Shown here: positions 9,543-64,000 of the stretch, in pieces
How the letters are laid out: every line of letters begins with the position of its first letter
Position numbering within the stretch: the first letter of the stretch is position 1
From: Acidobacteriota bacterium
Lineage (GTDB): Bacteria > Acidobacteriota > UBA890 > WLXD01
DNA length: 64,000 nucleotides
Reading direction: 5' to 3'
NCBI GenBank assembly: GCA_965205505.1
Contig: CBDBHB010000009.1
Span: 2,464,001 to 2,528,000, forward strand
Translations under genes and position numbers: made by a program
The notes under the pieces: generated by a model
The model's database searches: none
What the model was told of the DNA's origin: nothing
Seen by the model: the letters and a program-made list of their open reading frames with translations, nothing else

Positions 9543-10280
9543 ATGCGACCGCACCGTGTTGCTTTGGTCACCGGTGGCGCCATCCGTGTCGGGCGCGCCA
9601 TTAGCATGGCGTTGGGACGCGCTGGCTACGCGGTGGCAATCAACTATCTGCGATCGGCGCAGCCTGCTGACGAGCTGGTGTCGGAGCTACGGACGGCAGG
9701 AGGGCGGGCGGCGGCGCTGCAGGCAGACATCACCGATCCGCGGTCAGCCACCGAGCTCGTCGACGCGGTCAAGCACGAGCTCGGCGAGGTTGATCTGCTG
9801 GTCAACAACGCCGCCGTTTTCGAACGCCGGGCATTCGTCGAACTGGACGAAACAACCTGGCAATACCACCTGAGCCTGAACCTCGAGGCGCCTTTCCGGC
9901 TCACTCGCTTGGTGGGGGAGCGCATGTGGGAGCGTGGCCGGGGCCGCATCGTCAACATTTGCGGCACTATTGGCATCCATCCACTCGGGGACTACGCTGC
10001 GTACTGCGTTGCCAAGAGCGGTCTCGATGCGTTGACGCGTTGCAGCGCTCAAGCTTTGGCGCCGCGCGTGCAGGTAAACGGGGTGGCGCCGGGCGCCATC
10101 CTGTTCCCTGAGGGAACGTCGGAGGCGGAGCGCGAGAGGGTGCTGGCCCGCGTGCCGGCGGGGTCTGCCGGGACTCCCGAAGACGTAGCGCGCGGCGTGC
10201 TCTTCTTCGCCGAAGCGCCGGACTACATAACTGGCACCATCCTGCCGGTCGACGGCGGCGCGTCGCTGAGTGCCGGCTAG
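9543..10280 (+). CDS. Pteridine reductase-like SDR (FolM/PTR1 type)
   Basis: TGGAIRVG (Arg-containing PTR motif), LVNNAA, YCVAK, LAPRVQVNGVAPG, VDGG. Confidence 0.82.
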   Translation: MRPHRVALVTGGAIRVGRAISMALGRAGYAVAINYLRSAQPADELVSELRTAGGRAAALQADITDPRSATELVDAVKHELGEVDLLVNNAAVFERRAFVELDETTWQYHLSLNLEAPFRLTRLVGERMWERGRGRIVNICGTIGIHPLGDYAAYCVAKSGLDALTRCSAQALAPRVQVNGVAPGAILFPEGTSEAERERVLARVPAGSAGTPEDVARGVLFFAEAPDYITGTILPVDGGASLSAG

Positions 10281-10555
10281 TGCTCCTGATCATAAGTACG
10301 GTGACGTTTGTGGCGCGCGCGACCGGGGCGAATTGTGGGAGCGGCGACGAGGGCGATGCAGGGTGTATCGTCGAGGCGCCGCGACGCCGAAGGTGGCCGG
10401 TCCCGCGGCCACCCGGAGGGCAGGAGCGATATGCGGACGATCTCGGCGTCAGGGCTCGTCGAGGATGGCTAAGGCATCGCCTTCCTCACCCTTCCTTGAT
10501 CTCGCCCGCATCTCGCTCCTGCAAACGTCACCGTACTTATGATCAGGAGCACTAG
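10277..10555. mobile_element. 279-bp MITE-like structured element, copy 1
   Basis: Perfect 34-bp terminal inverted repeat including CTAG (ctagtgctcctgatcataagtacggtgacgtttg); 271/279 identical to 22970-23248 by manual alignment. Confidence 0.93.
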
Positions 10556-11514
10556 TGTCAGCTCGATTCCACCACGGCCCGGTGATGATGTTCGGATCGC
10601 TTGATGCGGTGGCGGGTCTTGTCGCAGAGCGGATCTTGGGGGCAGGCGGTGACGCCATCGGGGTGGGCGCCAGGGAGCCGCCCGGGTGGCCGGGTGAGGC
10701 CGATTTTCATATATGCCGAGACCGGCGTGGGGTTGCTGCAGCAATACGCGAGCTTAGGCCAGAGTGCCTGATCAACTTCTGTGTCGACTCGCTCGCCCGC
10801 TCTGGGCGGCTCGCTCTTGCGAACACCGCGATGCGCGCCGCGGCGAGCGTGCGCGTACCACTGTTGATCCACTGGGGCAGCGCCGCCGCATACCCGCAGC
10901 CGTCGTCGGATGGGCGCCCTTGGTTGGAGACCGATACGCTCGATGACGCAGCAGGAGCCAACGACCAGACGGCGATAGATCGCGCCGTGCGTGAGTTCGC
11001 CGGGGTACACGGCCGAACAAACGTCTATGTGTTCCGGGCCGCTGCAACCATAGGGCCTCGGAGCACGAGCCTCATCGAAGATCTGCTGCGCACGCCGTTG
11101 GTCTCACGGCTACAACGTGATCCGATGGTGCAATTCCTTCATGAAGACGACGCCGCGGACGTTCTTTGGCGGGCGATACGGGAAGGGCACGGTGGTACCT
11201 ACAACGTGGCCGCCGACGGTCTACTACGACTCTCTGAGGTGTGCCGAGCCGTTGCGCGGCCCAGTCGGGTGCTTCCCGTCGGCTTTGCCTGGCTACTAGC
11301 AGGAGTTGCCTGGTTGTTGCGGCGGGCGCCATCGCCAGCGCGCCAGCTGCGCTGGTCATCCGGGTTGCCGATCATCGACAACACTCGACTGAAGACCCAC
11401 TTCGGGACGCGGCCGCGCCACACGGGACGCGAGGCCCTGGCAGCTGCTCGGGCTCACACGGCATTCAGCACCCTACTAGATGGGGAGTCGTCGACGTCCC
11501 CCGACCCGCCTTAA
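10555..11514 (+). CDS. Atypical NAD-dependent epimerase/dehydratase-family protein
   Basis: WGSAAAY, FRAAATIGP, VQFLHEDDAA and GTYNVAADG fit the extended-SDR fold; no GxxGxxG or YxxxK. Confidence 0.7.
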   Translation: MSARFHHGPVMMFGSLDAVAGLVAERILGAGGDAIGVGAREPPGWPGEADFHICRDRRGVAAAIRELRPECLINFCVDSLARSGRLALANTAMRAAASVRVPLLIHWGSAAAYPQPSSDGRPWLETDTLDDAAGANDQTAIDRAVREFAGVHGRTNVYVFRAAATIGPRSTSLIEDLLRTPLVSRLQRDPMVQFLHEDDAADVLWRAIREGHGGTYNVAADGLLRLSEVCRAVARPSRVLPVGFAWLLAGVAWLLRRAPSPARQLRWSSGLPIIDNTRLKTHFGTRPRHTGREALAAARAHTAFSTLLDGESSTSPDPP

Positions 11515-11566
11515 CCAGGCCCCGTCGCGCTCGCTACAGGCGTACCACTATTTGTGGGGCGTAGCA

Positions 11567-12205
11567 CTAGAAGCCCCAGGCGAGCCCCACCACCACCGTA
11601 TGCGCGTTGATGCCCGGGTTCGCCGGCCCGGTGCCGGCGTTCGAAACGTGATGCAGGCGGTAGTCGATTTGGATCGCTCGTCGTTCGGAGACAGCGAACT
11701 CCACCCCGGCGCCAACGAAGAGCGTGTAGTTGAAGCGCGTCTCGCCCGGGGGAACCCGGCGCGACGTGAACAACGTTCCTGTACCAGCCCGGATCACCGG
11801 GCGGACACTGCGTGCCGGCCTCAGGCGATGTTCGTACACGAGGCTCCAAGCCGCGCCCCAGGCGCTCGGCGATTGATCGAAGTAGCTGAATGGCGAGAGC
11901 TCGACGCCGACTGCAGGTTGCCCCCCCAAGAACTTCTTGGTGCTGGCGAGCACGTCTTGGCCGCCCAGCACTCGCGTCCATCGCACCCACACCGAGTCGA
12001 TGTCGATTTCCTTCGAGCCGTTGATCTGTGCACCGATCCCATGGCTACCGGCTACCGCCCAGCGGTTATGTCCCGGTCGCTTGGCCTGCACGTCTTCCGT
12101 GCGAGAGGCAGGCTCGGGCAACTCGAGGGGAGGGGCGGTGTCCTGGGCGAGCACGGGAGTCGCGAGACTCAAGATGGCCAAGATGAGCGAACTGCATCGC
12201 AGCAT
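11567..12205 (-). CDS. PagL / acyloxyacyl hydrolase-family outer-membrane beta-barrel
   Basis: Signal peptide MLRCSSLILAILSLATPVLA; FNYTLFVGAG; YRLHHVSNAG..NPGIN; C-terminal Phe. Confidence 0.8.
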   Translation of the reverse strand: MLRCSSLILAILSLATPVLAQDTAPPLELPEPASRTEDVQAKRPGHNRWAVAGSHGIGAQINGSKEIDIDSVWVRWTRVLGGQDVLASTKKFLGGQPAVGVELSPFSYFDQSPSAWGAAWSLVYEHRLRPARSVRPVIRAGTGTLFTSRRVPPGETRFNYTLFVGAGVEFAVSERRAIQIDYRLHHVSNAGTGPANPGINAHTVVVGLAWGF

Positions 12206-12469
12206 CGTAAACTCGCGGGTTTCCGGATGCGCTGCCCTCACCTCGGCAACCGCGTCCTGGCGGTTCGATCCCACAGTTTCGCATGCTCGATGGACGGGTG
12301 CGTTTCGTGGCCGACCCGCCCGGGTGCTTGACTCCCATTGCACAAGCCCTGAGACTGCGGCCGCGGTCTCGGCCACCCCTGAGCGAGTCGCTGCGATGCA
12401 GCGCGTTGCGTGGCTCGCGGCTTCTCACTGCGGTCGGGATGTCGATCTCGAGGGTGTCGAACGCTCGTC

Positions 12470-13492
12470 ATGAACCACGACCGGACCCAACCCCCGTCAC
12501 GTCCGGGCCCTGACAGGCGCGATCGTTTCCGAGCTCCGGAACACGATCGCGCGCTTCGAGTCATGGAAGCTCACCGGGTGCGGGAGCTTGCCGTGAAGAC
12601 GTCGATCTTCCGGCTGTCCGTCGCCGCCGCGCTCGGGCTGGTGCTGTTGAAGCTCGGTGCCGCCTGGTGGACCAACAGCCTGGCGATTCTCGCCTCCGGC
12701 CTCGACTCGATGCTCGACGTGGCGCTCGCCGGACTCAACTGGTTCTCGGCCAGGAAGGCGGAGGAGCCGCCGGACACCGAGCACCCGTTCGGGCACGGCA
12801 AGGTCGAGAGCCTCGTGGGCGGGATTCAGGCGTTGATATTGGCCGGTGTGGCGGTGTTTATCGGCGTTCAGGGCGTCGAGCGCCTACGCGCTCCGGAGCC
12901 CGTTGTCGGTACTACCTGGGGTGTCGGCGTGATGTTGGTCTCGGCGTTGGTCGCCCTCGGGCTCTCGCGGCTCATCCGTTCGCGCGGAGCCGGAACCGAG
13001 TCGCCGATAATCGCTACCGAACAGCTGCATTACTCGATGGATTTCACCAGTCACGCTGCCGTAATTCTTGCCCTCGTTCTGCAGGCGACCACGGGCGTCA
13101 TCTATTTCGATCCGTTCGTGTCGATCCTGATCGCCGTGTTCGTACTCTGGCAGGTGCGGGCGCTGAGCATCGACACCGCTCAGGATCTCCTGGACCGTGA
13201 GCTGCCGGCGGATGTTCAGCAGGAGATCGTCCGTGTCCTGGATGAGCATGGTGGCGAGGTGCTGGCATATCACGGCCTGCGCACGCGCCGCGCCGGAAGC
13301 CAGAAGATCGTCAATCTGCACTTGGTGCTGTGCAAGGCGATCAGCTTCGAGACCTCGCACCACATCGTTGACCACGTGGAGCAGGAGCTCGAGCTCGCGA
13401 TTCCGCGTACCGACGTGACCATCCACGCAGATCCGTGCGGCGAGTACTGTCCGGGCGAGGACCGCTGCCCGTGGTCTCGGTTGCTGCGCTAG
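12470..13492 (+). CDS. Cation diffusion facilitator (FieF-like)
   Basis: SGLDSMLD, HPFGHGKVE, HYSMD, LRTRRAG, IHADP. Confidence 0.9.
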   Translation: MNHDRTQPPSRPGPDRRDRFRAPEHDRALRVMEAHRVRELAVKTSIFRLSVAAALGLVLLKLGAAWWTNSLAILASGLDSMLDVALAGLNWFSARKAEEPPDTEHPFGHGKVESLVGGIQALILAGVAVFIGVQGVERLRAPEPVVGTTWGVGVMLVSALVALGLSRLIRSRGAGTESPIIATEQLHYSMDFTSHAAVILALVLQATTGVIYFDPFVSILIAVFVLWQVRALSIDTAQDLLDRELPADVQQEIVRVLDEHGGEVLAYHGLRTRRAGSQKIVNLHLVLCKAISFETSHHIVDHVEQELELAIPRTDVTIHADPCGEYCPGEDRCPWSRLLR

Positions 13493-13504
13493 GAAGTATC
13501 GCGA

Positions 13505-14377
13505 TCAAGAGCCCGCGTGCGGCTCGGCGTCTGGTTGGCTCGTGGCGACCGGCTTCGGTGGCGTGGCGGGTGCGGAGTCACTCGAGATCGGCAGCGGCGT
13601 CAGCCGCACGTAGGCGATCAGGATCACCAGGAAAGCAGCTCCGGATAGCAGCGCCAGCAACCCTGCGTCGCCGAACTCCGGTGCCTGGCTTTCAGTTGCC
13701 TCGAGCAACGGGATGGCGGCGAACGCCAGCAAATTGTTGGCGCCGTGCGCCAACATTGCCGGGAATATCGAGCCCGAGCGCCACACGAGAATACCGAAGT
13801 AGACGCCCAGCAGCGTGCGTGGCAACAGCCCGATAATGTCGAGGTGGAACAGCGCAAACAGCAGGCCGGTGATGAAGATCGGCACACCCCAGCGGCGGCC
13901 GCGAGCCAGCAGTTGCAGCATTAGGCCACGGAAGAGAAGCTCCTCGCAGACCGCGGCCAGAAACACTCCGCCGAACAGCAGCAGCGCCAGCTCGCCGGTG
14001 GTTTCTGTCTTCAGCAACGGTTCGAGCATTTGCTCCAGCAGCTCGCGCCAGTCGTCGCCGCCGGGAATAAACTCGAGGACCAACTCCTGCGTCGCTCCGC
14101 CGAACATCTGCAGCGGAATCGCAGTGGCCCCAGCGACCACGTAATGAATCCAATGCGTGGACCGCAGCAGGAACGCGTCGCGGAAGTTCAGTCTGAGCAG
14201 CAGTGCGAACAAGACCGGGGCGGCGAGGATCGCGCCGATCTCGTCCACGACGATCAGCAGCTTGAAGTCGAGTCCGGCGATCGTTCCGCCCATCGCCAGG
14301 AACAGATGGAGGGCGAGAGCGAACAAGAACAGCGCCATCGCGGTCCAGCGCGCGGACAGAGGAGGAGGCCAGGGCAA
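13505..14377 (-). CDS. CPBP (Abi/CAAX) intramembrane metalloprotease
   Basis: EELLFRG, FALFH and AHGANN motifs; hydrophobic; start uncertain. Confidence 0.88.
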   Translation of the reverse strand: MPWPPPLSARWTAMALFLFALALHLFLAMGGTIAGLDFKLLIVVDEIGAILAAPVLFALLLRLNFRDAFLLRSTHWIHYVVAGATAIPLQMFGGATQELVLEFIPGGDDWRELLEQMLEPLLKTETTGELALLLFGGVFLAAVCEELLFRGLMLQLLARGRRWGVPIFITGLLFALFHLDIIGLLPRTLLGVYFGILVWRSGSIFPAMLAHGANNLLAFAAIPLLEATESQAPEFGDAGLLALLSGAAFLVILIAYVRLTPLPISSDSAPATPPKPVATSQPDAEPHAGS

Positions 14378-14515
14378 GAAACGGCTCCGGATGGCGTTTG
14401 CGAAGGCCGGGGCGCGGCGGACAGTGCGCGCAGAAGGCTCATACTAGCATAGGAAGAGAGGGTCTCCAGAGCCCAATCTCTTGACCCCACAATCGCTTGA
14501 CCGGAGCCGCAACGG

Positions 14516-14944
14516 ATGCCCATGGACGAACCGATGGTGCGCAAGTCGACGCCGTTCGATGCTCTCCTCGGCCTTGATGTGAAGCAGGCGCGCGACGGGG
14601 AGTCGGAGGTTCTGCTGGAGCTGGTAGCGGCCCATTGCAATCGGCGCGGCGTGGCTCACGGAGGTGTCGTGTGTGGGCTGCTCGACACCGCCTTGGGTGC
14701 GGCCGTGGTGTCAACGCTCAGTGAAGCCGAATGGTGCGGTACGCTCGAGCTCTCGGTACAGTTTCGAGACCCGGCCCGCCACGGCCCTCTCGTGGCGCGT
14801 GGGCGCGTTGCGCGTCGCGGGCGTCGCGTGGCGTTTGCCGAGGGCGAAGTGGTCGACGCCCGCGATCGTGTGGTAGCCGTCGCTCATGGAGTCTGGACGA
14901 TCTGGCCAAGCCATCCCGACGGTCAGAGCACCTCGCTGACCTGA
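14516..14944 (+). CDS. PaaI-family thioesterase
   Basis: HCNRRGVAHGGVVCGLLD hot-dog motif. Confidence 0.88.
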   Translation: MPMDEPMVRKSTPFDALLGLDVKQARDGESEVLLELVAAHCNRRGVAHGGVVCGLLDTALGAAVVSTLSEAEWCGTLELSVQFRDPARHGPLVARGRVARRGRRVAFAEGEVVDARDRVVAVAHGVWTIWPSHPDGQSTSLT

Positions 14945-14948
14945 GCGC

Positions 14949-16217: not shown

Positions 16218-16283
16218 GTCACCGCTGCTGCCATGTCGCAGGAATCCATGATTCGGCTCCAGGATGCGCATCTTAGCTCACCA

Positions 16284-20683: not shown

Positions 20684-20689
20684 TCGTCG

Positions 20690-21631: not shown

Positions 21632-21758
21632 CTCCGGGCGTCTACCGTCGGCATGTCTGCCGGCCTACGAAACCGCGGAGCGAAACGAACCGTATCCTAC
21701 AAGGAACAGCGGACCGATCTACGAGGTCGAGGCGCTCAATGGAACTTTCGGAGGCGGT

Positions 21759-22973
21759 ATGACGAGCAGATTTGCCAACCAGCTCCTGTCGAGGCGTCAG
21801 ATCGTGGCGTGGGCCACCGTCCTGGCGCTGCCCGCCTGTGCAGTGACCGTCTCCTCGGCGCCGCCGTTGCCGTTCGAATCCGAACGCCGCCTCGAGCGCA
21901 CCCTCGAGGTCGCCCCGGGGACCACTTTGCGGATCGAGAACCTTGCCGGCGGTTTCTCTATCGAGCGCACCGATAGCTCGAGCGTGGAGATCGAGGTCCT
22001 GGTGCATGCTGGGGGGCACGAACAGGACGAAGCGAACTCGCTCGCAGAACATATCCAACTGGCGCTCGAAGACGATGGCAACACGCGAATCCTGCGCGCC
22101 ACCTACCCGGTGGATGACTACCGGGAGTACTACTACCCGAGCGATCGTGAGTCGCACTCGTTCTTTGGTGTGTTCGACACGAGCAGCGCCCGGTTCGAGT
22201 ACATGGGCCGTCGGGTGAGGGTCTCGACCCGTCGTGGAGGACGGTCGGCCTCGGTTTGGGCTGACTTCCATGTGCGCGTACCGAGCGGGATACGGCTCCA
22301 GGTGCTCAACGCGGTCGGCGAGATTCAGTCGGCGTCGGTGAACGGCGAGGTCCGCCTCGAGGCCCATTTTGGCAGCATCAAGTCGCAGGACGGGGAGGGC
22401 TCGGTAACGCTAGATACGGGCAGTGGCAGCATTACGGTCGATGGGCATCGCGGTGAGGTTCTGGCGGATACCGGCTCGGGTCGTGTCGAGATACGCGAGG
22501 TCGTCGGCGACGTCATGGCCGATACCGGCTCGGGCGCCGTCAGACTTACGGGCATAACCGCCGAAGCGGTCGAGGTGGATACTGGCTCCGGCGGTGTGAC
22601 GCTCGATCGGGTCAGCGGTTCGATCTCCATAAGTACGGGATCCGGGTCGGTGCGCGCCGACGAAATCGTTTCCGGGGAGCGCGTCCTGGTTGATACCGGT
22701 AGCGGTAGCGTGCGGCTCAACGGCGACGTTTCGCGTGCCAGGAACATCCAGATCGAAACCTCGAGCGGTCGCGTCGAGATGCGCTTGCGGGCCTACCCGG
22801 CGATGAGCCTCAGGTTGAGCACCGGCAGCGGCGGCATCGACGTGGACCTGCCGGCGCTGGTCCTGGAGCGCGATGAGCGCGACCTTCTCGTAGGCCGTGT
22901 TGGCGACGATCCGATCACCCGCGTGGTCATCGACACCGGCAGCGGCAGCATCAGAATCGCCGAAGGCGGCTAG
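21759..22973 (+). CDS. DUF4097-like beta-strand repeat protein, exported
   Basis: N-terminal hydrophobic segment; about nine DTGSG/STGSG repeats; GGAGG upstream of the ATG. Confidence 0.82.
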   Translation: MTSRFANQLLSRRQIVAWATVLALPACAVTVSSAPPLPFESERRLERTLEVAPGTTLRIENLAGGFSIERTDSSSVEIEVLVHAGGHEQDEANSLAEHIQLALEDDGNTRILRATYPVDDYREYYYPSDRESHSFFGVFDTSSARFEYMGRRVRVSTRRGGRSASVWADFHVRVPSGIRLQVLNAVGEIQSASVNGEVRLEAHFGSIKSQDGEGSVTLDTGSGSITVDGHRGEVLADTGSGRVEIREVVGDVMADTGSGAVRLTGITAEAVEVDTGSGGVTLDRVSGSISISTGSGSVRADEIVSGERVLVDTGSGSVRLNGDVSRARNIQIETSSGRVEMRLRAYPAMSLRLSTGSGGIDVDLPALVLERDERDLLVGRVGDDPITRVVIDTGSGSIRIAEGG

Positions 22974-23248
22974 CGCTCCTGATCATAAGTACGGTGACGT
23001 TTGTGGTGCGCGCGACCGGGACGAATTGTAGGAGCGGCGACGAGGGCGATGCTGAGTGTATCGTCGAGGCGCCGCGACGCCCAAGGTGGCCGGTCCCGCG
23101 GCCACCCGGAGGGCAGGAGCGATATGCGGGCGATCTCGGCGTCAGGGCTCGTCGAGGATGGCTAAGGCATCGCCTTCCTCACCCTTCCTTGATCTCGCCC
23201 GCATCTCGCTCCTGCAAACGTCACCGTACTTATGATCAGGAGCACTAG
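22970..23248. mobile_element. 279-bp MITE-like structured element, copy 2
   Basis: 33/34 terminal inverted repeat; left CTAG contains the stop codon of the DUF4097 gene; 8 substitutions versus copy 1. Confidence 0.93.
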
Positions 23249-23273
23249 TTCCGCTAGACGTAGATCCTCACGT

Positions 23274-26200
23274 CTACTGCGTGAAGTACACCGTGACTGC
23301 GGCACGCTGATAGTTTTCGGTGGCTCCCGGAAGCATGAGTTCCAGTACCGCCCGCCCAGGACCGCCGACGATAACGCTGGTTGCCGCGATGCCCTCCACG
23401 GAACGCACCGGCCACGGCGTTGCAATTTCCACTCGATAGCGCCGCCCCGGGATGCCCTCGACGCGTAGCTGCAGCGCTCCGCCGACGAGCACCGACTCGA
23501 GCACTCGCAGCCCCGTGCTGGTAGCGCCTGGCTCCGGCGCCGGGAGAGGTTGCACCACCTCCGGATACGGGCTGTGACGGAAGACCACAGTGGCCTGCGG
23601 CTCGGTCAGGGTGACGGTAACCCGAGCTTCCTTCTCGTGCGGGTGGTCGATTACCGAAAGGCCTCCGGCGATCACGACACCTGTGGTGTTGTCGGGATCA
23701 AGGTTCACGAGCACGTCGCGCGGGAACGGCAACGCAAGCTCCAGTTGTATCGGGTCGTTGCCGGCCAGGCGGTCGATGGTGAAGCCGCTCGACTCCGGTG
23801 CGCGGAAGATCGCGACTCGAAAGGACTCCGCGCCTACCTTTACTGGCTGCACGGTGGTCTCGGTCCATCCACCGGGTAGGTGCGGGTAGATCCTGAGCCG
23901 CCCCTGTAGTGCGTCGGGTCGGATGCCGAGCATGCCCTCTACGGCCGGGAGGACGGCCATGGCGTGCGACGTCGCCTGATGAGTAGTTTCGCCGGCCAGT
24001 TCGTAGGTTTCGCCGTGCAGCGCCTCGGGGATGTGTCCGAGATTGCCCTGACGCACGAGTCGCAGGTTCTGGTTCAGGTTGAGGTACCCGGCCAGAGGGC
24101 GTCCATGGGCGTATGCGGCCAGCGATGTCCAGCCGGAGAACAGCGGCCATACCATTCCCTGGTGGTACCCGTTGGGGTCGTATGCAGGACTCGACCGCTC
24201 GATCAGCCGGGCGCCCCAATCGCTGGTGATATCGGAGCTTGCGAATCGCTCCAACAGCGGCCGCACTTTGGCCGCATCGACCAATCCGAAGTACATCGGG
24301 ACCGCCGGCAGGATAGTCGGAGCCGACTGATAGGCGCCGTCGGCGCGGAGTCCGTAAAAATAGGTGCGCGCCTGCGGATCCCAGAACCCCTCTTCGAGGG
24401 TCGCCTCGGCGCTGGCGCGCCGCTGTTGCGATAGCGCCGTGAGCTCATCATCGACCATCCACACGGCCATGCGCTCGACCGCTTGCAGGGCGGCTACCCA
24501 GAGGCTCGCAAGGTAGAAGGTAGTGTGAGCTCCGTAAATTGCTCCTTCCTCGATCCATCCATGTCCGACGGCGGTGTTCTCGATCAGGCCGTCGCCGTCG
24601 GTATCGGTGCTCTCGAGGAAGCGCATCGCGCGTCGGACGCTTGGCCACAGTTGGCGTAACAACTCTCGGTCGCCCGTGGCTCGGATATGGTGGTCAAGGC
24701 CGAGGAGAAATAAGGGCGTGGAGTCGGCGGCGTCATAGTGGATCGCCCATCCGGGTGATATCTGATGGGCGATCTTGCCGTCCACGTCCTGGTACCTGGC
24801 CAAGAAGCGGAGGGCCTCGGCGGTGAGGTCGGTGCCCCCGTAAGCGTCGGCGGCGAAGGCCGTCCACACGGCATCGCGGCCGAAGTACCAAGCGTAGCCG
24901 GGCCGGCGCAGGAAATCGTTGTCGCGGTGCCACGCGGCGGCGGTCGGATCGGCGCTAGCGGCGTACCCGGCGACCAGCCCGGTTCCCATTCCCGGCGTCG
25001 TGACGCGGAATGCATCCAGACCGACCGTGGCCCATCGGAAAGCCTCGTTGAACGTCGGATCGGGAGACGCGATCGACAGCGACTCGGCCAGGAATTGTCG
25101 ATAATGGTTGGCGTTCGCCGTCCAGGTGGCCGCCGGATCGCCGAGCAACTCGAGGTACGAGTTGCGCGCGGTGCTGTCATCGAAGGCACTGGCCACCACG
25201 AACGCCACGCCGGGCTCGAGGGTCGGATCGTGTGTGACCTGGAGCGACACGCGCGCGTTCTCCAGCTGGTTGGCAGACTCTCCCTGCGACGGCGGCGCGG
25301 TTGCTTCGAGCGCCTCTGCGGTACTCACGTCGAGCTGCCGGCCGCCGATCGTGACGCTCGACGCTGGCGCGCTGAATCCGGCATAGGCTGTGAACGACGC
25401 CGTCGGATCGCGCCACACCACCGCCGCTACGCCAGCATCCCAGCCCAGCTCGATTGGACCGAGGTGTCGCGGCTCTCGCGGCCACATCGAGGCATGATCG
25501 CTTCGCCAGCGTGCGTGCATGACCACGGGGGTGTCGCTTTCCACTTCGAACAGCGCCACGAGCCCGGGTCGATCGCGCGGCACAGCCAGGTGGGCGACGA
25601 TCGTGAGGTCGTCGAACGCGTATCGGAACGACGCGCCCTCCGGCCGGATGGTGAAGGTGATGCTCTGCGCTGCGGTGTCCAGCCATCTGATCTGAGCTGT
25701 GCCTTGTCGAGAGGCATCGCGACTGAAGCCGAATCGCAGGTCGCGCAACATGCGGAGCGGATATCCCCATAGCTCATCGATACGCCCATTCCGGGTACCG
25801 ACCACGAGCGCACGCGGACTGTACAGGTCGAACGGCGCGTTGTCGGCAACCTCCTGCTCGAGCGCGAGGCCCGAACGGGCGGCGGAGACCGCCTCAACCA
25901 CATCCGCGCGTAGCTCGGTGGCAGACTCTTCGGAGCTTGCCTCAAACCAGCGCGAGCCGGCCTGGCGAGGCGTCCAATACGTGGTTGCCCCGAGCACTCC
26001 CGGCAACTCCTCTGCTGTGGGCTCGGGCGAAACGGGCCGTAGATCGCTGCCACCCGGTGGAGGTGGCGGGGCGTCGCCGTCGCCAGCGGCCATCGTCCGT
26101 AGGGCAGGAAGGGCCACCGCTCCGGTAGAGGCAATCGCGGCCCCGGGCGGCGCCGGTGGTTGATCTCCACTGATGTAGACAAGCGCGTCGCGGGCAAACA

Positions 26201-26981: not shown

Positions 26982-26986
26982 GAGGT

Positions 26987-28615: not shown

Positions 28616-28764
28616 GCCGTTTCTCGACACTGTCTGGATGGCGCATGTAGAGACCAACCAGCCAGAGAGTCGCGTAAGGGCGAGGCTTTCGAAAGGGCGC
28701 ACGATGCCATCCTTTTCATCGGGAGACGGTCGCCCACCGCTCGTTGTTTCAGAAGACGAACCCA

Positions 28765-30021
28765 TTACTCGTATCGCAAGGCTTCTACGGGATCGAGCCG
28801 GGCCGCACGGTTAGCAGGATAAATACCGGAGGCAACGCCAATCAAGGACGAGGTTCCCACCGCGATGGCGAACGACCACCACGGTAACGATATTGGGAAG
28901 CCGGTGGCCATGTGCGCCGCATAGCCGATGCCAGCGCCCACCAGCGCTCCGAGCAAACCGCCGACCGCAGCCAACACTACCGCCTCCGCCAGAAACTGCA
29001 GGAGAACGTCGGAGCGCCGCGCACCCAGCGCCTTGCGCACGCCAATCTCGCGCGTGCGCTCGGTGACCGATACGAGCATGATCGCCATTACACCGATGCC
29101 GCCGACCATCAGGGCCACGGAGGAGAGCGCCACCAGCGTCAGGAAGAAGTACTGCGTGAGGTTCTTCCACAGCTCCAACAGGCTTTCCTGGGTGGTTAGG
29201 TCGAAGTCCCTATCCTCGTTGGCGCGGAGGCCGTGCCTCGCCCGCATGATGCCCTCGACCTCGGTTTGCATCCGGTCCACGCCGTGCTCGGCCTTCGCCC
29301 GCATGACCACCATTGCTCCTTGGGGGCGCGGGCCGAACAGCTTGCTGTAGTTGGTCGACGACACCAGAACAAAGTTGTCGGCCTGGTCGCCGGCCAAGCT
29401 CGATGCGTCCCGTGACTTGATCGTGCCGATCACCCGATACTCGCGCCCGTTGACGCGCACCCGGCGACTGATCGGATCGCGGTCTGGAAACAACACCGAG
29501 CGCGGCCCGTCGCCCAGCACGACGACGTCCGTGCGTTGCCGCACGTCGATCGTGCTGATGAAGCGGCCCAAATCCAACTCCATGTCGCCGGCATCCAGGA
29601 ACCGCGGGGCGATTCCCATGACCTGAGTTTGGTTGGTGCGCCGGCCGGCGAATCGAACCATCGCCTGGCTCGGTGGAAAGCCGGCCCCGTACATGATCGA
29701 GACCCGCTCGACTGATTCAGCGAGTCGCCCGATGGCGTCGGCGTCGCGCTCGGTGATGTCCGGCCGGGCGTTGAGTCGGCGGAACTCCTCTCCCGAGGTA
29801 ACCAGTCGGCCGCCCCACTTGATGAGGTACACCGTGTCCGACCCGAGCGACTCGATCTGGCCGGTCATCGATTGATCGAAGCCGCGTATGAGGCTCGTCA
29901 TTCCGACCACCATCGTGATGCCGATGACTATACCCAGGATAGTGAGGAACGAGCGCATCTTGTGGGCGCGCAGGCTCTTCCAGGCCATCCCGAGGACTTG
30001 GCTAATGACGACGGAGCGCAT
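28765..30021 (-). CDS. MacB-like ABC permease
   Basis: RSFLTILGIVIGI, VGGIGVMAIMLVSVTERTREIGVRKALGA, LDPVEALRYE. Confidence 0.93.
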   Translation of the reverse strand: MRSVVISQVLGMAWKSLRAHKMRSFLTILGIVIGITMVVGMTSLIRGFDQSMTGQIESLGSDTVYLIKWGGRLVTSGEEFRRLNARPDITERDADAIGRLAESVERVSIMYGAGFPPSQAMVRFAGRRTNQTQVMGIAPRFLDAGDMELDLGRFISTIDVRQRTDVVVLGDGPRSVLFPDRDPISRRVRVNGREYRVIGTIKSRDASSLAGDQADNFVLVSSTNYSKLFGPRPQGAMVVMRAKAEHGVDRMQTEVEGIMRARHGLRANEDRDFDLTTQESLLELWKNLTQYFFLTLVALSSVALMVGGIGVMAIMLVSVTERTREIGVRKALGARRSDVLLQFLAEAVVLAAVGGLLGALVGAGIGYAAHMATGFPISLPWWSFAIAVGTSSLIGVASGIYPANRAARLDPVEALRYE

Positions 30022-31268
30022 CACTCGTACCGGAGCGCGGCGATCGGATCGAGCATGGCGGCGCGGCTCGCCGGGTAGATCCCAAAGACCACACCCACCA
30101 CCATGACGGTGGCGAGCGCCGCTGCCACCGACCAGGGCACGAGCACGAACGGCAGCGGAGTGAAGTTGGATATTCCCGCCGCCGCAGCGTAGCCCATGGT
30201 GATTCCCGCCACACCGCCGACCAGCGAGACGGTGACCGCCTCGACGAGGAACTGCCACAGGATCTGCTGATATGTGGCCCCCACCGCCTTGCGGATGCCC
30301 ACCTCTCGGGTTCGCTCGGTGACCACCATCAACATGATGTTCATGATCACTATCCCGCCAACCACCAGCGCCATCGCGACGATGCCGATCAATGCCGCGT
30401 AGATGCCGGCCGTAAATTGATGATAGAGATCCAGGAACGTGTCGGAGCTGGTCACCGCGAAGTCGTCCTCGTCGCGGGGCCGCAAGCGGTGTCGAATGCG
30501 CATCAGCATCCGAGCCTCGTCCATCGAGGCCTCCACCAGTTCGGGTCGGCGCGGCTTGACGCGAAATTCCAACGAGGTGCGGTAACCGAACAGACGTTGC
30601 CAGATCCCGATCGGAACTACTGCCACTTCGTCCTGACTGAAGCCGAACACCGAGCCGCGGGTCTCGAGCACTCCGATCACGATAAAATGCAGGCTCCCGA
30701 TGCGAACACGGCGGCCCAGCGCGGCCTCCGGTGGGAGCCCGGGAAACAACTCCTCCACTATGTCGAGGCCCAGCATCGCGACGGCACGGTTCCGGTCCAC
30801 CTCGAGGGAGGAGAAGTAGCGTCCCGCGCGCATTCCGGTTGGGTCGAGGAACGCCCAGTCATACGACCGTCCCTCGATACCGACTCCGTCTACCGATCGG
30901 CTCCCGTACTCAACTCGTGTGCTGCGGTCCGCGCCCACCGACAGTGCGGCGATCGTCGTGGCCTCCTCGCGCACGAAGCGAGCATCGGCGCGCGTAAGCC
31001 GAGGTCGATTGCGCATGGCCATAGCCTCCTCGTGCGAGAAGGCGATGCCCGCGCGCTCGATCGAGTACACGTCGGCGCCCTCGGCGGTGAGCAGGCCGGT
31101 GACCTCGGAGTTGACACCCTGGATGATCGTCACCACGAGGATGATCGAGCTCACGGCGATGATGTTGCCGAGCACCGTGAGGAACGAGCGCAGCTTGTTG
31201 GCCCAGATCGAGTCGAGCGCGATGAGCACACCCTCCGAAAGCCCGATAGCGCGGCGCGTGCTGCTCAT
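30021..31268 (-). CDS. MacB-like ABC permease
   Basis: [50 protein letters not shown]. Confidence 0.93.
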
Positions 31269-32020
31269 CCGGCCGAGGCGTGCTCGGCGCCGATCAGCCA
31301 CGGTGTTTGCCGTTCATCTCGCACGATCTCGCCGTCGAGGAAATGCACGGCGCGGTGGGCATACTTGGCGATGTCCGCTTCGTGGGTTACGACGATCACG
31401 GTCTGACCCTTGTCGTGCAGCTCGATGAACAGCTCCATGACCTCGTACGAGGTCTTCGAGTCGAGGTTCCCGGTGGGCTCGTCGGCGAGCAGGATCGCAG
31501 GTTCGTTGACCAACGCGCGAGCGATCGCGACGCGCTGCCGCTGGCCACCGGAGAGCTCGTTTGGACGGTGGTCCGAGCGGTCGGCGAGGCCGGTTACCTC
31601 GAGTGCGTGCAGCGCCCGCTTCTTGCGCTCGCGCCCGGAGACTCCGGCGTAGATCAGCGGCAACTCGACGTTGTGCAAGGCGGTGGCGCGCGGCAGCAGG
31701 TTGAAGGTCTGGAAGACGAAGCCGATCTCGCTGTTGCGCACAGCGGCTAGCTCGTTGTCGTCGAGATTGCTGACCTCCTGGTGATTGAGCGTATATGTGC
31801 CAGCGGTCGGCGTATCCAGGCAACCGATCAGGTTCATCAGAGTCGATTTGCCGGAGCCCGAAGGGCCCATGATGGCGATGAACTCGTTCTGATATATGTC
31901 AAGGTCGACACCGCGAAGCGCCTCGACCTTGACCTTACCCATGTCGTACGTTTTTCCGAGGCCACGGATCTCGATGATCGGCGATCCGCCATCGGTGCCG
32001 CGCGTCTCCGCCTCACTCAT
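31265..32020 (-). CDS. ABC transporter ATP-binding protein (MacB/LolD-like)
   Basis: [31 protein letters not shown]. Confidence 0.95.
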
Positions 32021-32024
32021 GCGC

Positions 32025-33320
32025 TTACTCCGTTTCCTTCGTGGTTCGATTTCGTCGTGGCGTGCCGGTGTCGACGCGCTCGCCGGACTGCAGCGTGCGG
32101 ATCACGTCGAATGGGCCGACCACCACCTCATCGCCCTCGGCAATCCCCGAAAGTACCTCGAAGTATCGCTCGCCGGCCACGCCGATCTTCACTGGGACGA
32201 ACTCCGCCTTGTCGTCTCGAACCAAGAAAGCTCCTTCGAGCTCTTGAAGCTCCTGCTCGGCATCGTCATCCCCACCGCCGTTTTCGACCTCGGCCAAGAG
32301 CTCGGCGAGGGGGTCGCGCTGCACGATCTGCCCGTTCTCGTCCAGCTCGACCTCGCGCAGAATCAACGACTGGATTGGAACCGCCAGCGCCTCGTCGCGG
32401 GTGGCGGTCACGATGTCGGCTGTGCACGACAGCCCCGGTCGAGCGCCTGGGACGGCTTCGAGCACGCGCACAACTACCTTGAAGTTGATCGCCTGCGTGC
32501 TCGAGGTCGCTTGGGCGCTGTTGATCGGGCTCCTCCCCACTTCGATCACACTTGCCGAGAACACGGAATCTGGAAACGCGTCGATGCGGACTTCTGCTTG
32601 TTGCCCAAGCTCGACGTCGACGATGTCGGTCTCGTCGATCTCGATCTCCGCCTCGACGAACGAGAGGTCGGCGACCGTGAGGAGCACCGTACCCGGGTTG
32701 TTCATGGTCCCGGTGATGGCGGTCTCCCCCTCTTCGATGTTGAGCTTGGTGATGACCCCGTCGATCGGCGACCGGAATGCCACCTGCGACAGGTCGTGCT
32801 CGGATTGCTTGAGCTGGGCGCGCAGGCGCTCGATGTCGGTCTCCCGCATCTGCAGGTTTTGCTCCTCGCGGCGCACCGCCTGTAGCGCCTCCAGGTAGGC
32901 TTCCTCGGCGAGCAGGTCTTGCTGATACAGACCCTCGCGGCGGTCGAGCACGTCGCGTGCATAGGCGAGATTCTGGCGGGCCAGCTCGGTGTTGGTCTCT
33001 GCCGACTGCATCGATGCCTCGACCTGCTCGACGGCGCTGCGGTAGCGCACCGGGTCGATTCGGAGTAGGAACTGCCCGGCCGACACGTCCTGTCCTTCCA
33101 GTACCGAGAGCTGCACTACGCGACCGCTAACGTTGGAGGAGATGTCGACCTCCTTGAACGGCCTGATCTTGCCCGAGCCGGAGACCGTCGCGGTAAGGTC
33201 GCGGCGCTTGACGTTCTCGGTTTGCACCTCGATGGCCTTGGCGGTGCGTCCGCGATTCGCATACACGCCGGCGGTGACGATAAGCGCCGCGACGACCCCG
33301 ATCAGTATCTTCTTCAGCAT
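32025..33320 (-). CDS. Efflux periplasmic adaptor (MacA-like membrane fusion protein)
   Basis: N-terminal anchor; biotinyl-like halves ([24 protein letters not shown]); alpha-hairpin; IDETDIVDV. Confidence 0.92.
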
Positions 33321-33545
33321 GATTTCGCAGATGTGGCGCGGATTCTGAGAGGGGGAGCGGAGTCAGCTTCTCCTTAGATGAGGGTAGTCACGCTACGCGC
33401 CGCCGGCAAGCAACATTTCGTCGCCGGCACGGTGCTCCGATGGACGGTCGGTGGTCCTGGTTGAGCGGCGTCGAGCGGACTATGGGTCCTACCCAATGTG
33501 CTGCCCCACAAGGGGTTTTTCGCTTCCGGAGCCGCCTGGCCACCG

Positions 33546-33554
33546 TGCTAAACT
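33546..33554 (+). promoter_or_regulatory. Extended -10 element (TGcTAAACT), probable leaderless promoter
   Basis: 6 nt before GTG 33561; no Shine-Dalgarno. Confidence 0.45.
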
Positions 33555-33560
33555 GCCTCC

Positions 33561-34403
33561 GTGAACTACACTTTCAAACAGCTGATGCAGCGTACGCTGC
33601 TGGCGGTTCTTGGCCTCCTGGCGGTGTCGCTGGCGGGTAGTCACTACGTGGCCCCGGACGGCGCGTTGTGGCCCGAGGTCGATCTCGGTGGCCCGCTGCC
33701 GGAGTTCCGCACCGATCGGCTCGCCACGTCGTGGACAGAGGTCGCGCGTGTGCTCGAGCCTTCCGTAGCTGTGGTGGCTATCTACGACGGAGCGCGCGGC
33801 GAGGGGGCTCCGCAGCGTTCGAGCGGCTCAGCGCTGGTGGTCCGCTCCGACGGTTATTTGGTGACCAATTGGCACGTCGTGGAAGGTGCCGGACAGATCG
33901 AGATACTGCTGCAAGGCTTGCCGCCGTTGTTGGCGACCGTGGTGGGGCGCGACAGCAGCACTGATCTCGCGGTCCTCAGGGTCGACGTCACCGAGCCGCT
34001 ACAGGCAGCGGCGTTGGGCGATTCGGAGGTGCTTCGAGTGGGTGAGTGGGTGGTAGCCATGGGAGCCCCGTTTCGGCTGACGGGGACGGTGTCGACAGGT
34101 ATCGTGAGCGCCCTTGATCGCCGCGTGCGGTCACTGTCGATGCGCAGCGGATTCATCCAGACAGACGCGGCGATCAACCCCGGCAACTCCGGCGGCCCGC
34201 TAGCGAATCTGCGTGGTGAAGTTATTGGCATCAATACGGCGATCGCAGTGTCTGAGGCGGCGTCAAGGACCGGGCGCGGTGCCTACGCCGGCGTCGGCTT
34301 CGCCATCCCGATCAATACCGTGCGTCGCGTGGCGGCGCGACTCATCGGCCGCGCCGGGCTGCTAGCCCCTGAAAGGGACCGCGCCGAGATCGCGGCATCC
34401 TAA
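33561..34403 (+). CDS. HtrA/DegS-like trypsin protease without PDZ domain
   Basis: TNWHVV, DLAVL and QTDAAINPGNSGGPL triad; ends soon after GFAIP. Confidence 0.9.
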   Translation: MNYTFKQLMQRTLLAVLGLLAVSLAGSHYVAPDGALWPEVDLGGPLPEFRTDRLATSWTEVARVLEPSVAVVAIYDGARGEGAPQRSSGSALVVRSDGYLVTNWHVVEGAGQIEILLQGLPPLLATVVGRDSSTDLAVLRVDVTEPLQAAALGDSEVLRVGEWVVAMGAPFRLTGTVSTGIVSALDRRVRSLSMRSGFIQTDAAINPGNSGGPLANLRGEVIGINTAIAVSEAASRTGRGAYAGVGFAIPINTVRRVAARLIGRAGLLAPERDRAEIAAS

Positions 34404-34438
34404 CAGGAGGCCGCCTTGCGGAGCCACGAGCGTCGATT

Positions 34439-34460
34439 CACTTTCACCACGGCCTGCTAG
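34439..34460. repeat. Isolated end of a second CTAG-targeting element
   Basis: cactttcaccacggcctgctag is the exact reverse complement of 63859-63880. Confidence 0.8.
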
Positions 34461-34735
34461 TGTCCTGTAACAGAGGTTCGTTGCATATTGCTGGGTCGAG
34501 ATGGGGGCAAGCTCAAGGCGCGATGAGAATGGCGATGCGGTGTCCATCGTCGACGAATCGCAACGCTGAGATTGCCCCCATATCGACCCAGCCCTCCGGG
34601 TGGCCGCGGGACTGGCCGCCTCCGGCGTCGGCCCTCCTCTGCGATACGCTCAGCATCGCCGTCGTCGAGCCTCCTTGGATTCGACTAAGTCGCGCGCGCC
34701 ACAATATGCAACGAACCTCTGTTACAGAACACTAG
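34457..34735. mobile_element. 279-bp MITE-like structured element, copy 3 (diverged, inverted)
   Basis: 33/34 terminal inverted repeat (ctagtgtcctgtaacagaggttcgttgcatattg); reverse complement aligns gap-free with copy 1 at about 199/279. Confidence 0.92.
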
Positions 34736-34746
34736 GACGCTCGCCT

Positions 34747-63862: not shown

Positions 63863-64000
63863 CAGGCCGTGGTGAAAGTGTGGTGGGTCTGGCGACAGGG
63901 TTTTGCGAGGTGGAGGCAAGGAGAGAGGAGGAGGCGATGGATACCCCATCGCCTGTGTCAGGCCGCCTTGCATCTGGCCCCAACTCGCCGTAACCAGACC
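63859..64000. mobile_element. Start of another CTAG-targeting repeat element (runs off the window)
   Basis: Begins at the ndk TAG; first 22 nt are the reverse complement of 34439-34460; contains the caagg..gagga-ggcgatg-loop-catcg module of the 279-bp family. Confidence 0.7.

Follow-up and report, generated by a model that had tools for sequence, protein, structure and literature searches.

Element copies and genomic setting

The window, a stretch of 64,000 nucleotides that probably derives from an Acidobacteriota chromosome, contained three copies of a 279-bp element running from CTAG to CTAG, together with a second family of elements, B (Table 1). The length, ends and positions of the three copies, as given in an earlier note on this DNA, were confirmed. 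A fourth DNA copy was found in an Acidobacteriota MAG (L002). Copies 1 and 2 formed subfamily A, while copy 3 and the L002 copy formed subfamily C, and the identities within them (97% and 97.5%, respectively) were evidence of recent spread. Between the subfamilies, copy 3 was complementary without gaps to copies 1 and 2 over 279 nt (71% and 72%, respectively, by the repeat finder), in agreement with an earlier count of approximately 199/279 between copies 1 and 3. All four DNA copies aligned without any gap.

Table 1. Elements, element parts and overlapped stop codons in the window
Feature	Position	Strand	Description
TAG stop of short-chain dehydrogenase gene (9423-10280)	10278..10280	+	inside the 5' CTAG of copy 1
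Copy 1	10277..10555	+	subfamily A; 279 bp, CTAG to CTAG; 34/34 inverted repeat (repeat finder)
Copy 1, terminal stem	10277-10309 with 10523-10555		
Copy 1, left arm	10310-10412		
Copy 1, right arm	10420-10522		
Copy 1, invariant 20-mer	10401-10420		
B-like remnant (tcgattc..caccacggcc)	10563..10579	+	just right of copy 1
TAG stop of DUF4097 gene (21759-22973)	22971..22973	+	inside the 5' CTAG of copy 2
Copy 2	22970..23248	+	subfamily A; 279 bp
Short B-type piece	34404..34460	+	between the TAA stop of a trypsin-like protease gene and copy 3
Copy 3	34457..34735	-	subfamily C; 279 bp; in the opposite orientation to copies 1 and 2
Family B element	63859..64000	+	cut by the window end; 5' CTAG at 63859 includes the TAG stop codon of the ndk gene (63443-63862); nhmmer E 7e-4 to the A/C right-arm tip

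CTAG bounded every copy at both ends, and in three of the four DNA copies (copy 1, copy 2 and L002) the 5' CTAG contained the TAG stop of the upstream gene, as did that of the family B element at ndk. Among 46 Pfam-supported genes, three of the eight C-TAG stop codons were occupied. The Pfam domains of the dehydrogenase and NDK reached to 2–5 residues from their stops (adh_short_C2 ended 5 aa before the dehydrogenase stop), so these proteins were not truncated. The neighbouring genes differed between copies, unrelated host genes flanked each copy, and the flanks had no mutual similarity apart from pieces of family B. Three of the four copies were co-oriented with the upstream gene. Since both orientations occurred within 25 kb and copy 3 was antisense to both of its flanking genes, which lie on the + strand, there was no obvious replication-strand or transcription-strand rule.

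The terminal repeat of family B was unrelated to those of A and C; a hairpin module, ggcgatg-loop-catcgcc, was common to family B and the A/C elements. The last 22 nt of the short B-type piece left of copy 3 were the B terminal repeat, with an exact 18-mer match (0.05 expected), and the piece and copy 3 had one CTAG in common. The motif search for the remnant beside copy 1 gave two matches in the window versus 0 expected. The A/C element thus abutted ends of family B, which likewise starts with CTAG.

A Pfam search of the 149 window ORFs of at least 140 aa detected no family of transposase, integrase or HUH type, consistent with the earlier statement that the window holds no cognate enzyme, and no transposase or Y1/HUH family was detected among the 11 ORFs of L002. 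No reading frame was open in both subfamilies, and the element was therefore regarded as non-coding. Rfam, proposed as a check in the earlier note, gave no match at the gathering score in the whole window, and its E-value mode returned sub-threshold noise only; the element matched no family. A promoter scan yielded 0 sites, and the one terminator-like site was outside the element.

Predicted fold and covariation between subfamilies

The predicted fold was Y-shaped, with a 33-bp terminal stem and two arms of approximately 100 nt (102 pairs in total). RNA folding gave an MFE of −180.4 (z −12.3) for copy 1 and −169.8 (z −11.5) for copy 3, and none of 200 shuffles was as stable in either case. Copy 1 alone was predicted as one long hairpin, and copy 3 and the consensus as a Y.

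Fixed differences between A and C affected 71 of the 279 columns, about a quarter of the bases. Fifty-two of these positions lay in 26 fully compensated pairs, four were one-sided (three of them wobble changes) and 15 were unpaired. In the Y fold, 98.8% of the cells were paired, versus 34–45% in slid controls, and 28 of the 102 pairs had changed on both sides, versus 1–3 in six slid controls. None of 500 shuffles attained the score observed for pairing or for covariation. The four DNA copies represent only two lineages and thus amount to a single comparison of A with C across many positions. Column pair 8/272 was seen mid-change, being T-A in subfamily A, T·G in copy 3 and C-G in L002. Between A and C, it was the shape of the fold that was preserved and not the sequence: the 26 compensated pairs and the absence of any indel bear out the earlier claim that shape and length are kept while the sequence of the terminal repeats drifts.

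The terminal repeats were the most diverged part, with 26 of 66 columns fixed-different, versus 45 in the other 213 columns. The 13–14 differences reported previously between terminal arms corresponded to 13 fixed positions that had changed on both arms. A near-perfect inverted repeat of 33–34/34 had been claimed for each copy; this held for copy 1 (34/34) and copy 2 (33/34, the single mismatch being a C at column 5). The terminal stem of copy 3 comprised 32 Watson-Crick pairs and one T·G wobble, 33 pairs in all. Including flanks, the inverted repeat of copy 3 extended over 39 nt at 92% (repeat finder). The internal 21-bp stem covaried as described (columns 144–164/226–246) and retained the same single mismatch, T·C at 154/236, in all four copies. 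Covariation was likewise found in the shorter helices at columns 65–69/102–106 and 175–178/213–216. The proposed conserved core was recovered as the 20-mer tcccgcggccacccggaggg, invariant in all four copies; it is not an unpaired centre, as a portion of the 20-mer forms pairs with gtggcgcgcgcgac, which is likewise invariant and lies at the base of the left arm.

Strand asymmetry and maintenance of pairing

Eight stem positions had a fixed G·T wobble and none had a fixed A·C, a count that rests on the fold predicted for that same strand; 13 symmetric-loop oppositions were added as a check, and none of these was A·C. All eight were in the inner arms, with no fixed wobble in the terminal stem, and the G·T at 82/90 and 170/220 have been kept in all four copies since the A/C split. 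With RNA parameters, the MFE was 2–8 kcal/mol better on the strand in copy 1 orientation for all four copies, while with DNA energy parameters this asymmetry was absent or reversed. The G·T-only asymmetry suggests folding of one strand, either RNA or ssDNA, in line with the single-strand folding envisaged earlier. At the copy 3 locus, read-through RNA would carry the less stable strand; the orientation thus held for three of four copies and was not a rule.

The element could also be a MITE-type repeat in which a neutral DNA process, and not selection on a fold, keeps the pairing. The palindrome would fold back on a single strand at replication, and hairpin template switching or mismatch repair would copy arm onto arm, so that each mutation is erased or doubled. 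Copying between hairpin arms is described as a possible source of compensatory change without selection, and hairpins are reported to arise and be maintained through template switching (PMC8794818). Seventeen of the 26 compensated pairs (10/13 in the terminal stem and 7/13 inside) were transversion pairs, which have no wobble intermediate and so agree better with copying between arms than with compensation in steps, as in RNA. The lack of fixed wobbles in the terminal stem agrees with such copying, as do the unpaired cells, which were few and all private recent changes, and the private changes in stems, which were not significantly rarer there (9 in 204 paired columns versus 7 in 75 unpaired). 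However, such copying would be expected to eliminate G·T and does not favour either strand, so the eight fixed G·T of the inner arms, two of them present in all copies, and the absence of fixed A·C count against it. Conserved internal mismatches, such as T·C at 154/236 and the C·C of columns 44/127, also persisted in all four copies, the changed positions of the terminal stem were unclustered (5 adjacent pairs among the 13 of 33, by manual count, versus approximately 4.7 expected at random), and no indels had accumulated over 71 substitutions. We consider neutral copying unlikely, and selection of the fold rather probable.

A non-mobile structured RNA, either a multi-copy non-coding RNA gene or a cis-regulatory RNA, with CTAG and the inverted termini as its closing helix, would have a strongly compensated three-way fold and strand-specific wobbles, and the co-orientation of three copies with the upstream gene is compatible with it. 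This explanation is nevertheless highly improbable given the lack of an Rfam match or promoter-like site, the antisense position of one copy, and the presence of 97% identical copies exactly in CTAG at unrelated loci, between unrelated host genes and abutting the CTAG-starting family B.

Mobility and candidate enzymes

The element is very probably a mobile repeat of the MITE type. Like MITEs of IS630/Tc1-mariner, it is small and non-coding, with long terminal inverted repeats, dispersed copies and the potential to form a long hairpin. It is flanked by TA within CTAG, described as the preferred target of IS630, which duplicates the TA (PMC2170065). In contrast to those MITEs, its terminal repeats are the least conserved part, with arms co-changed at 13/33 pairs, and its body is a conserved three-way fold. 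MITEPsy1, an IS5-like MITE of Pseudomonas syringae, is reported to insert at either CTAG or YTAA, with duplication of that site, which is then present on both sides, as here, but it has 100 nt, with 18-nt repeats similar to those of the known ISPsy2, and the portion of the source used here mentions no conserved internal fold or compensatory evolution (PMC3189936).

From its CTAG/TA target signature, the element would be moved by a DDE transposase (IS630- or IS5-like), and we regard a DDE-type enzyme as likely. The whole reading, a non-autonomous non-coding MITE served in trans by a DDE transposase and with a body selected to fold on one strand, was given a probability of about one half. Under this MITE reading, a transposase encoded elsewhere would move the elements, most likely of the IS630/Tc1-mariner kind (duplicating TA in CTAG) or the IS5 kind (duplicating CTAG). 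As the element ends rebuild CTAG on both sides, insertion would keep the host TAG stop and create two new target sites, which would explain the end-to-end arrangement with family B. A and C, with terminal repeats that differ at 13/33 pairs, probably depend on transposases that are related yet distinct. The body would be selected to fold on one strand, that of copy 1 orientation; the inner arms have eight fixed G·T and no fixed A·C. The fold would most likely act as RNA, in read-through from the gene with the overlapped stop codon, where, as an intercistronic or 3'-end structure, it may stabilize the host transcript or lessen the harm done to it; alternatively, one DNA strand may fold during movement.

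The earlier note proposed a structure-recognised mobile unit (ssDNA/HUH- or REPIN-like) or a functional structured RNA. In a mobile unit of the first kind, read as a single strand by its structure (REPIN- or IS200/IS605-like), an HUH/Y1-type enzyme would recognise, on one DNA strand, the subterminal hairpins, which are conserved, and would cut at CTAG, with the left one as the target and the right one as the element's own end; terminal repeats could drift as long as they pair, and a single enzyme could act on A, C and even B. This would suit terminal repeats that are least conserved yet always complementary, the ggcgatg-loop-catcg(c/t)c hairpin common to A, C and B despite the unrelated B terminal repeat, and the one-strand G·T wobbles. 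To our knowledge, however, IS200/IS605 elements lack terminal inverted repeats, whereas the signature seen here, long perfect terminal inverted repeats with a palindromic CTAG at both ends, is the one reported for DDE elements (PMC2170065, PMC3189936). The hairpin tips are approximately 75 nt from the element ends, both orientations occur within 25 kb, and neither the window nor L002 yielded a Y1/HUH family. RAYT genes are reported from Acidobacteria, but REPs are described as 20–40 bp long with GTAG or CGTC tags (PMC3733652), in contrast to the CTAG tag and approximately 100-nt arms here, and it is for DDE elements that a CTAG/TA specificity has been documented (PMC2170065, PMC3189936). A single-strand unit of this kind is thus less likely than the DDE MITE, and quite improbable.

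Compensatory change in MITE-like repeats is already known from bcr1 and REPINs. REPINs, as described, resemble the element in combining two inverted hairpin-forming units in one foldback, in keeping length and pairing while sequence varies, with compensatory changes common, and in having alternative long-hairpin and 'clover' folds (PMC3116915, PMC3733652), which the long-hairpin and Y folds of copy 1 and copy 3/consensus recall. They are approximately 70–110 nt long and linked to a RAYT gene (PMC3116915, PMC3733652), unlike the 279-bp element, which has a CTAG at each end and perfect terminal repeats of 34 bp, with no RAYT seen in the window or L002. The closest functional analogue is bcr1 of the Bacillus cereus group, a transcribed MITE-like mobile repeat with flanking direct repeats (PMC3184786). 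It differs in its length (approximately 155 bp), 5-bp direct repeats and phylum and has no sequence relation to the element; its structural stability is reported to have been lost several times (PMC3184786), versus 98.8% pairing kept by both subfamilies here.

Further subfamilies

The fixed length claimed earlier held for all four DNA copies but not family-wide, as relatives from translated searches contained indels. The translated A-type copy P0001 implied a 1-nt deletion in the core C-run, and more distant translated relatives required gaps in the alignment. Further subfamilies were recovered as translated ORFs (P0002, P0004, P0005, P0008 and P0010). In P0010, 22 of 23 codon-determined pairs still paired, versus 5–14 when slid, one of them being a new compensated terminal pair.

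Two subfamilies of a 279-bp repeat

The three copies in the window were each 279 bp long from CTAG to CTAG. Copies 1 and 2 were 97% identical, and the inverted copy 3 matched them without gaps at 71-72% of positions, as the earlier note had described. The invariant 20-mer was used as the query in a scan that covered each prokaryotic species with one genome and yielded three loci, none of them in the window. The sole true copy among these was at L002, a locus on a 2.2-Mb contig of an Acidobacteriota MAG, which suggests an Acidobacteriota relative as the source of the window. It was 279 nt long, shared 97.5% identity with copy 3 over 277 nt and aligned without gaps to the other three copies. Judged from sequence identity, copies 1 and 2 make up one subfamily, A, and copy 3 and the L002 copy another, C, with an A-to-C divergence of 25-29% and no indel. 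At L003 the match was limited to 21 nt. At L001 (2455-2501, Opitutaceae MAG), 42-47 nt matched the invariant core and its left neighbour at 88% of positions, with an nhmmer E of 1.5e-4 that applies to a small search space; the rest of the element was absent around this match, which is probably due to chance in high-GC DNA. A four-copy nhmmer profile run on the window and the three loci recovered no additional full copy, and blastn in distant mode gave no match for copy 1 against plasmids or for copy 3 against phages.

The flanks of the three window copies and the L002 copy were dissimilar and their neighbouring genes different (see table). Beyond the element copy, similarity between L002 and the window was limited to pieces of a second CTAG-starting repeat family, family B. 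The window had a G+C content of 65% and its genes were ordinary chromosomal ones, encoding a pyruvate-dehydrogenase-type complex, RecD2, MacB-type efflux, urocanase and cytochrome bc, together with serA, icd, mdh and ndk. Two neighbouring MacB/FtsX-type permease genes (28765-31301) were paralogues with 72-78% identical stretches (repeats D2 and D11); the efflux operon around them also encodes a membrane-fusion protein, an outer-membrane factor and an ABC ATPase.

Positions of element copies, family B pieces and parts of the consensus fold
Feature	Position	Context or basis
Copy 1 (subfamily A)	window 10277-10555	short-chain dehydrogenase gene on one side, epimerase-like gene on the other, both + strand
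Copy 2 (subfamily A)	window 22970-23248	DUF4097 gene on one side, convergent glycoside-hydrolase-like gene on the other
Copy 3 (subfamily C, inverted)	window 34457-34735	trypsin-like protease gene on one side, + strand ORF with its start at ~34748 on the other
L002 copy (subfamily C)		between two FAD-oxidoreductase genes
Terminal stem	alignment columns 1-33 with 247-279	consensus fold, four copies
Left arm	alignment columns 34-136	consensus fold, four copies
Right arm	alignment columns 144-246	consensus fold, four copies
Family B element	window 63859-64000, cut by window end	starts with CTAG holding the TAG stop of ndk
Short B piece, 57 nt	window 34404-34460	flanked by the trypsin-like protease gene's TAA stop and by copy 3
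B-like remnant tcgattc..caccacggcc	window 10563-10579	directly right of copy 1
B piece at L002	L002 5806-5862	end to end with the element, as at copy 3
Solo B end at L002	L002 262-293	

Conserved fold and compensated substitutions

Folding energies were -180.4 kcal/mol for copy 1 (z -12.3) and -169.8 kcal/mol for copy 3 (z -11.5), and none of 200 shuffles was as stable. For the four copies together, a Y-shaped consensus fold is predicted, with a terminal stem and two arms of ~100 nt, both of which end in a ggcgatg-loop-catcg hairpin. The centre, described as conserved in the earlier note, was invariant but is not free in the predicted fold: its ccgcggccac stretch is paired with gtggcgcgcgcgac, a likewise invariant sequence at the left arm's base.

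Standard pairs filled 98.8% of the 408 cells of the alignment, and both sides had changed in at least one sequence in 28 of the 102 pairs. When the 3' partners were slid by 1-3 columns as a control, pairing was 34-45% and the number of double changes 1-3. The observed pairing or covariation score was equalled in 0 of 500 shuffles. There were 71 fixed differences between A and C, uniform within each subfamily. Twenty-six fully compensated pairs (13 in the terminal stem and 13 in the arms) comprised 52 of these, evidence that is one comparison of two lineages, though at many positions; four were one-sided (three of them wobble changes) and 15 lay in unpaired columns. The tool's count of 28 pairs takes in two with copy-private changes. 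Substitutions followed base pairs, not codons. The short helices named in the earlier note covaried as stated (gcggc/gccgc vs ggctc/gggcc; aggg/ccct vs gcga/tcgc). Pair 8/272 shows a change in progress, subfamily A having T-A, copy 3 T·G and the L002 copy C-G. The 16 copy-private changes were distributed as nine in 204 paired and seven in 75 unpaired columns, a trend that was not significant.

The terminal repeats were the most diverged part of the element, yet always complementary. The repeat finder gave 34/34 matching positions for copy 1 and 33/34 for copy 2, and the terminal stem of copy 3 had 32 Watson-Crick pairs and one T·G among its 33. An origin of A and C as independent fresh palindromes from two IS ends was rejected, as the left arm is distinct from the right one and A and C have this asymmetry in common, in the same register.

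Mobile repeats whose folds are conserved through compensatory changes are of a kind already known. REPINs are alike in keeping length and pairing, with compensatory changes being common (PMC3116915). What is unusual here is that 26 pairs were exchanged without an indel and with nearly complete pairing at this subfamily divergence; the least-conserved terminal repeats, the three-way architecture and the stop-codon landing sites are unusual too. The literature searched, which included work on Acidobacteria MITEs and covered the MITE census PMC11602168 without its supplements, held no description of this family.

Probable selection on the fold and possible arm-to-arm copying

Fixed G·T pairs occurred at eight stem positions (five in A and five in C, two of them shared), all in the inner arms. 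No A·C position was fixed; the only two A·C cells were private mutations. The wobble count includes 13 symmetric-loop oppositions, which lowers the bias from a fold predicted on the same strand. The two arms are homologous in inverted orientation. A constraint on the DNA duplex should therefore place G·T in one of them and A·C in its counterpart, but both arms showed G·T on the same strand. The RNA minimum free energy (MFE) was 2-8 kcal/mol better on this strand in all four copies, an advantage that does not hold with DNA energy parameters. Internal mismatches were kept in every copy, namely C·C at 44/127 and T·C at 154/236. The latter is the single mismatch of the 21-bp internal stem, which was reported in the earlier note to covary and did so. 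Within the predicted fold, the one-strand G·T pattern, the RNA MFE and the kept mismatches argue for selection on a single-strand fold.

The same three observations count against a neutral process in which one arm is copied onto the other by template switching or hairpin repair; template switching is reported to make and preserve hairpins (PMC8794818). However, 17 of the 26 compensated pairs were transversion pairs, which have no wobble intermediate, and the terminal stem had no fixed wobble, so that such copying may contribute, especially in the terminal stem. There, a transposase would in addition need the same sequence at both ends. If a single-strand fold is what selection sees, the two active subfamilies with their exchanged stem pairs would be an unusually clean natural experiment, and the family could be used to ask what the secondary structure of a small transposon does. 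Candidate roles of the fold are end synapsis, single-strand recognition and tolerance of the insertion in host transcripts.

More distant relatives in protein sets

The frame-0 translation, used as the query in a word-indexed search of proteins, matched one entry, P0001, a 63-aa ORF that is an A-type copy. Its frame shifts in the otherwise invariant C-run of the core, so that either 1 nt has been deleted or the homopolymer was misread in sequencing; no other observation spoke against a strict length in subfamily A. Ten matches at E <= 1e-3 came from an exhaustive profile search, which covered 1.84 billion representatives. Six of these matches were real, and through them the elements appear in public protein sets as spurious Arg/Pro-rich ORFs: P0001, P0002, which was C-like with a different right end, and P0004, P0005, P0008 and P0010, which belonged to more distant subfamilies. 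The other four (P0003, P0006, P0007 and P0009; 914-2815 aa, repetitive, with six to eight matched stretches) were left out as low-complexity noise without inspection of their sequences.

The distant subfamilies kept the core PVPxPPGG (frame 0) and started with residues encoded by CTAG-T. Their alignment needed gaps, so the length is not fixed across the family. The fixed length of 279 bp proposed in the earlier note therefore stood for the four DNA copies but not for these translated relatives, nor, if its deletion is real, for P0001. Codon degeneracy was used to ask whether paired columns can still pair given the protein sequence, an indirect test of little weight. Pairing was possible for 22 of the 23 fully determined pairs of P0010 (slid controls 5-14), which also had a new compensated terminal pair at 20/260, and the result was clear for P0001 (13/13) and P0002 (12/13). 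It was weak for P0005 (19/25) and P0008 (14/20), whose alignments are gapped and uncertain, and for P0004 (7/13), which was no better than one slid control and whose gapped alignment is likewise uncertain.

Probable mobility and insertion at stop codons

No frame was open in both subfamilies, and a protein-coding reading was rejected. At 279 bp the non-coding element was within the MITE size range of 50-800 bp. Its terminal inverted repeats were 33-34 bp long, where MITEs have at least 10-15 bp, and several near-identical copies were found at unrelated loci (three in the window and one at L002). The element is probably mobile. A functional structured RNA, the other possibility raised in the earlier note, found no family match: Rfam at gathering score gave 0 matches over the whole window, and copies 1 and 3 reached 14.6-20.2 bits in E-value mode vs gathering scores of 45-168. 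A promoter scan showed no promoter-like site.

CTAG was present at both ends of all three window copies; the L002 copy had CGAG at one end. The TAG stop of the upstream gene was located inside the 5' CTAG of the element in three of the copies (1, 2 and that of L002), and the family B element at ndk had the same arrangement. Pfam domains reached within five residues (dehydrogenase) and two residues (NDK) of these stops, and the proteins thus keep their natural ends. Element ends made up seven of the 63 CTAG sites in the window. Among the 46 Pfam-supported genes there were eight C-TAG stops, three of which were occupied. If CTAG is rebuilt on both sides at insertion, the stop codon would be kept, and the element could land in the TAG stop of a gene without harm. 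Intragenic CTAG insertions would be lost and surviving copies would cluster at stop codons; we infer that the rebuilding of stop codons is the reason for this clustering.

CTAG was under-represented in the window, where ~200 sites would be expected by our own estimate from base composition. C preceded eight of the 15 TAG stops of Pfam-supported genes. At copy 3 (34732-34750), the right CTAG and the next two bases gave AGGA ten bases before the ATG of the downstream ORF at ~34748, likely a ribosome-binding site overlapping the closing stem. This AGGA, too, would be kept at insertion. Directly after copy 2 (23254-23279), a further CTAG and a hairpin with a 7-bp stem (tagacgt..acgtcta) were located between the two convergent genes and may be their terminator.

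Family B and stacked elements

The terminal repeat of family B begins with ctagcaggccgtggtgaaagtg and is unrelated to that of A and C, but the family carries the A/C hairpin module ggcgatg-loop-catcgcc. The short B piece next to copy 3 shared its CTAG with that copy, so that two elements are stacked in tandem within a short intergenic region. The piece was bounded by CTAA and CTAG and had CAGG-type ends on both sides, and may not be a broken element but a mini-element. The motif of the B-like remnant recurred at 34433-34454 (two matches in the window, 0 expected by chance). Elements in each other's CTAG ends would be expected of a CTAG-seeking transposon.

The putative transposition enzyme

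In agreement with the earlier note, the 149 window ORFs of at least 140 aa included no transposase, integrase or HUH family. Neither a full-length IS with the element's ends nor RAYT was present in the 64-kb window or in 8 kb of L002. IS200/IS605-type elements (PATE) are not known to have terminal inverted repeats, and have subterminal hairpins near their ends; the element had 34-bp terminal inverted repeats, and its hairpin tips were ~75 nt from the ends. REPs are 20-40-bp palindromic units with GTAG or CGTC tags in paired, inverted arrangement (PMC3733652), and the element differed from this unit in its CTAG tag and its ~100-nt arms.

An HUH enzyme could act in an IS200/IS605-like scheme, with the left CTAG as the target and the right CTAG as the element's own. 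Such a scheme would suit terminal repeats that diverge most while remaining complementary, a subterminal hairpin common even to family B and the strand-specific wobble pattern. It is less likely in view of the perfect 34-bp terminal repeats, the length of the arms with hairpin tips far from the ends, the CTAG tag vs the GTAG/CGTC of REPs (PMC3733652) and the occurrence of both orientations within 25 kb. We consider it improbable that the enzyme reads a one-strand DNA fold and the CTAG tips, not the terminal-repeat sequence, and serves A, C and B through their shared subterminal hairpin. If true, this would be a new class of CTAG-tagged, REPIN-like, structure-guided mobile DNA in Acidobacteriota, with stop codons as safe landing sites.

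IS3/IS481-type elements produce an identical 6-bp NCTAGN duplication. This model was rejected, since in each of the three window copies the outer N was unequal at the two ends, g preceding the left CTAG and a the right one. Elements of the IS630 family use TA as their target and duplicate it, and IS630 itself favours the TA of CTAG (PMC2170065). The IS5-like MITEPsy1 inserts at CTAG/YTAA and duplicates its target (PMC3189936). The element flanks were compatible with a 2-bp TA duplication of the IS630 type and as well with a 4-bp CTAG/YTAR duplication of the IS5 type, and may also have arisen without a duplication. A DDE enzyme is more likely than an HUH enzyme. Of the structure-recognised mobile unit proposed in the earlier note, the conserved structure and the probable mobility are retained; the HUH/REPIN-like class is the less likely one. 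The CTAA and CTAG flanks of the short B piece fit TA slightly better than an exact 4-bp repeat, a difference that mutation could explain.
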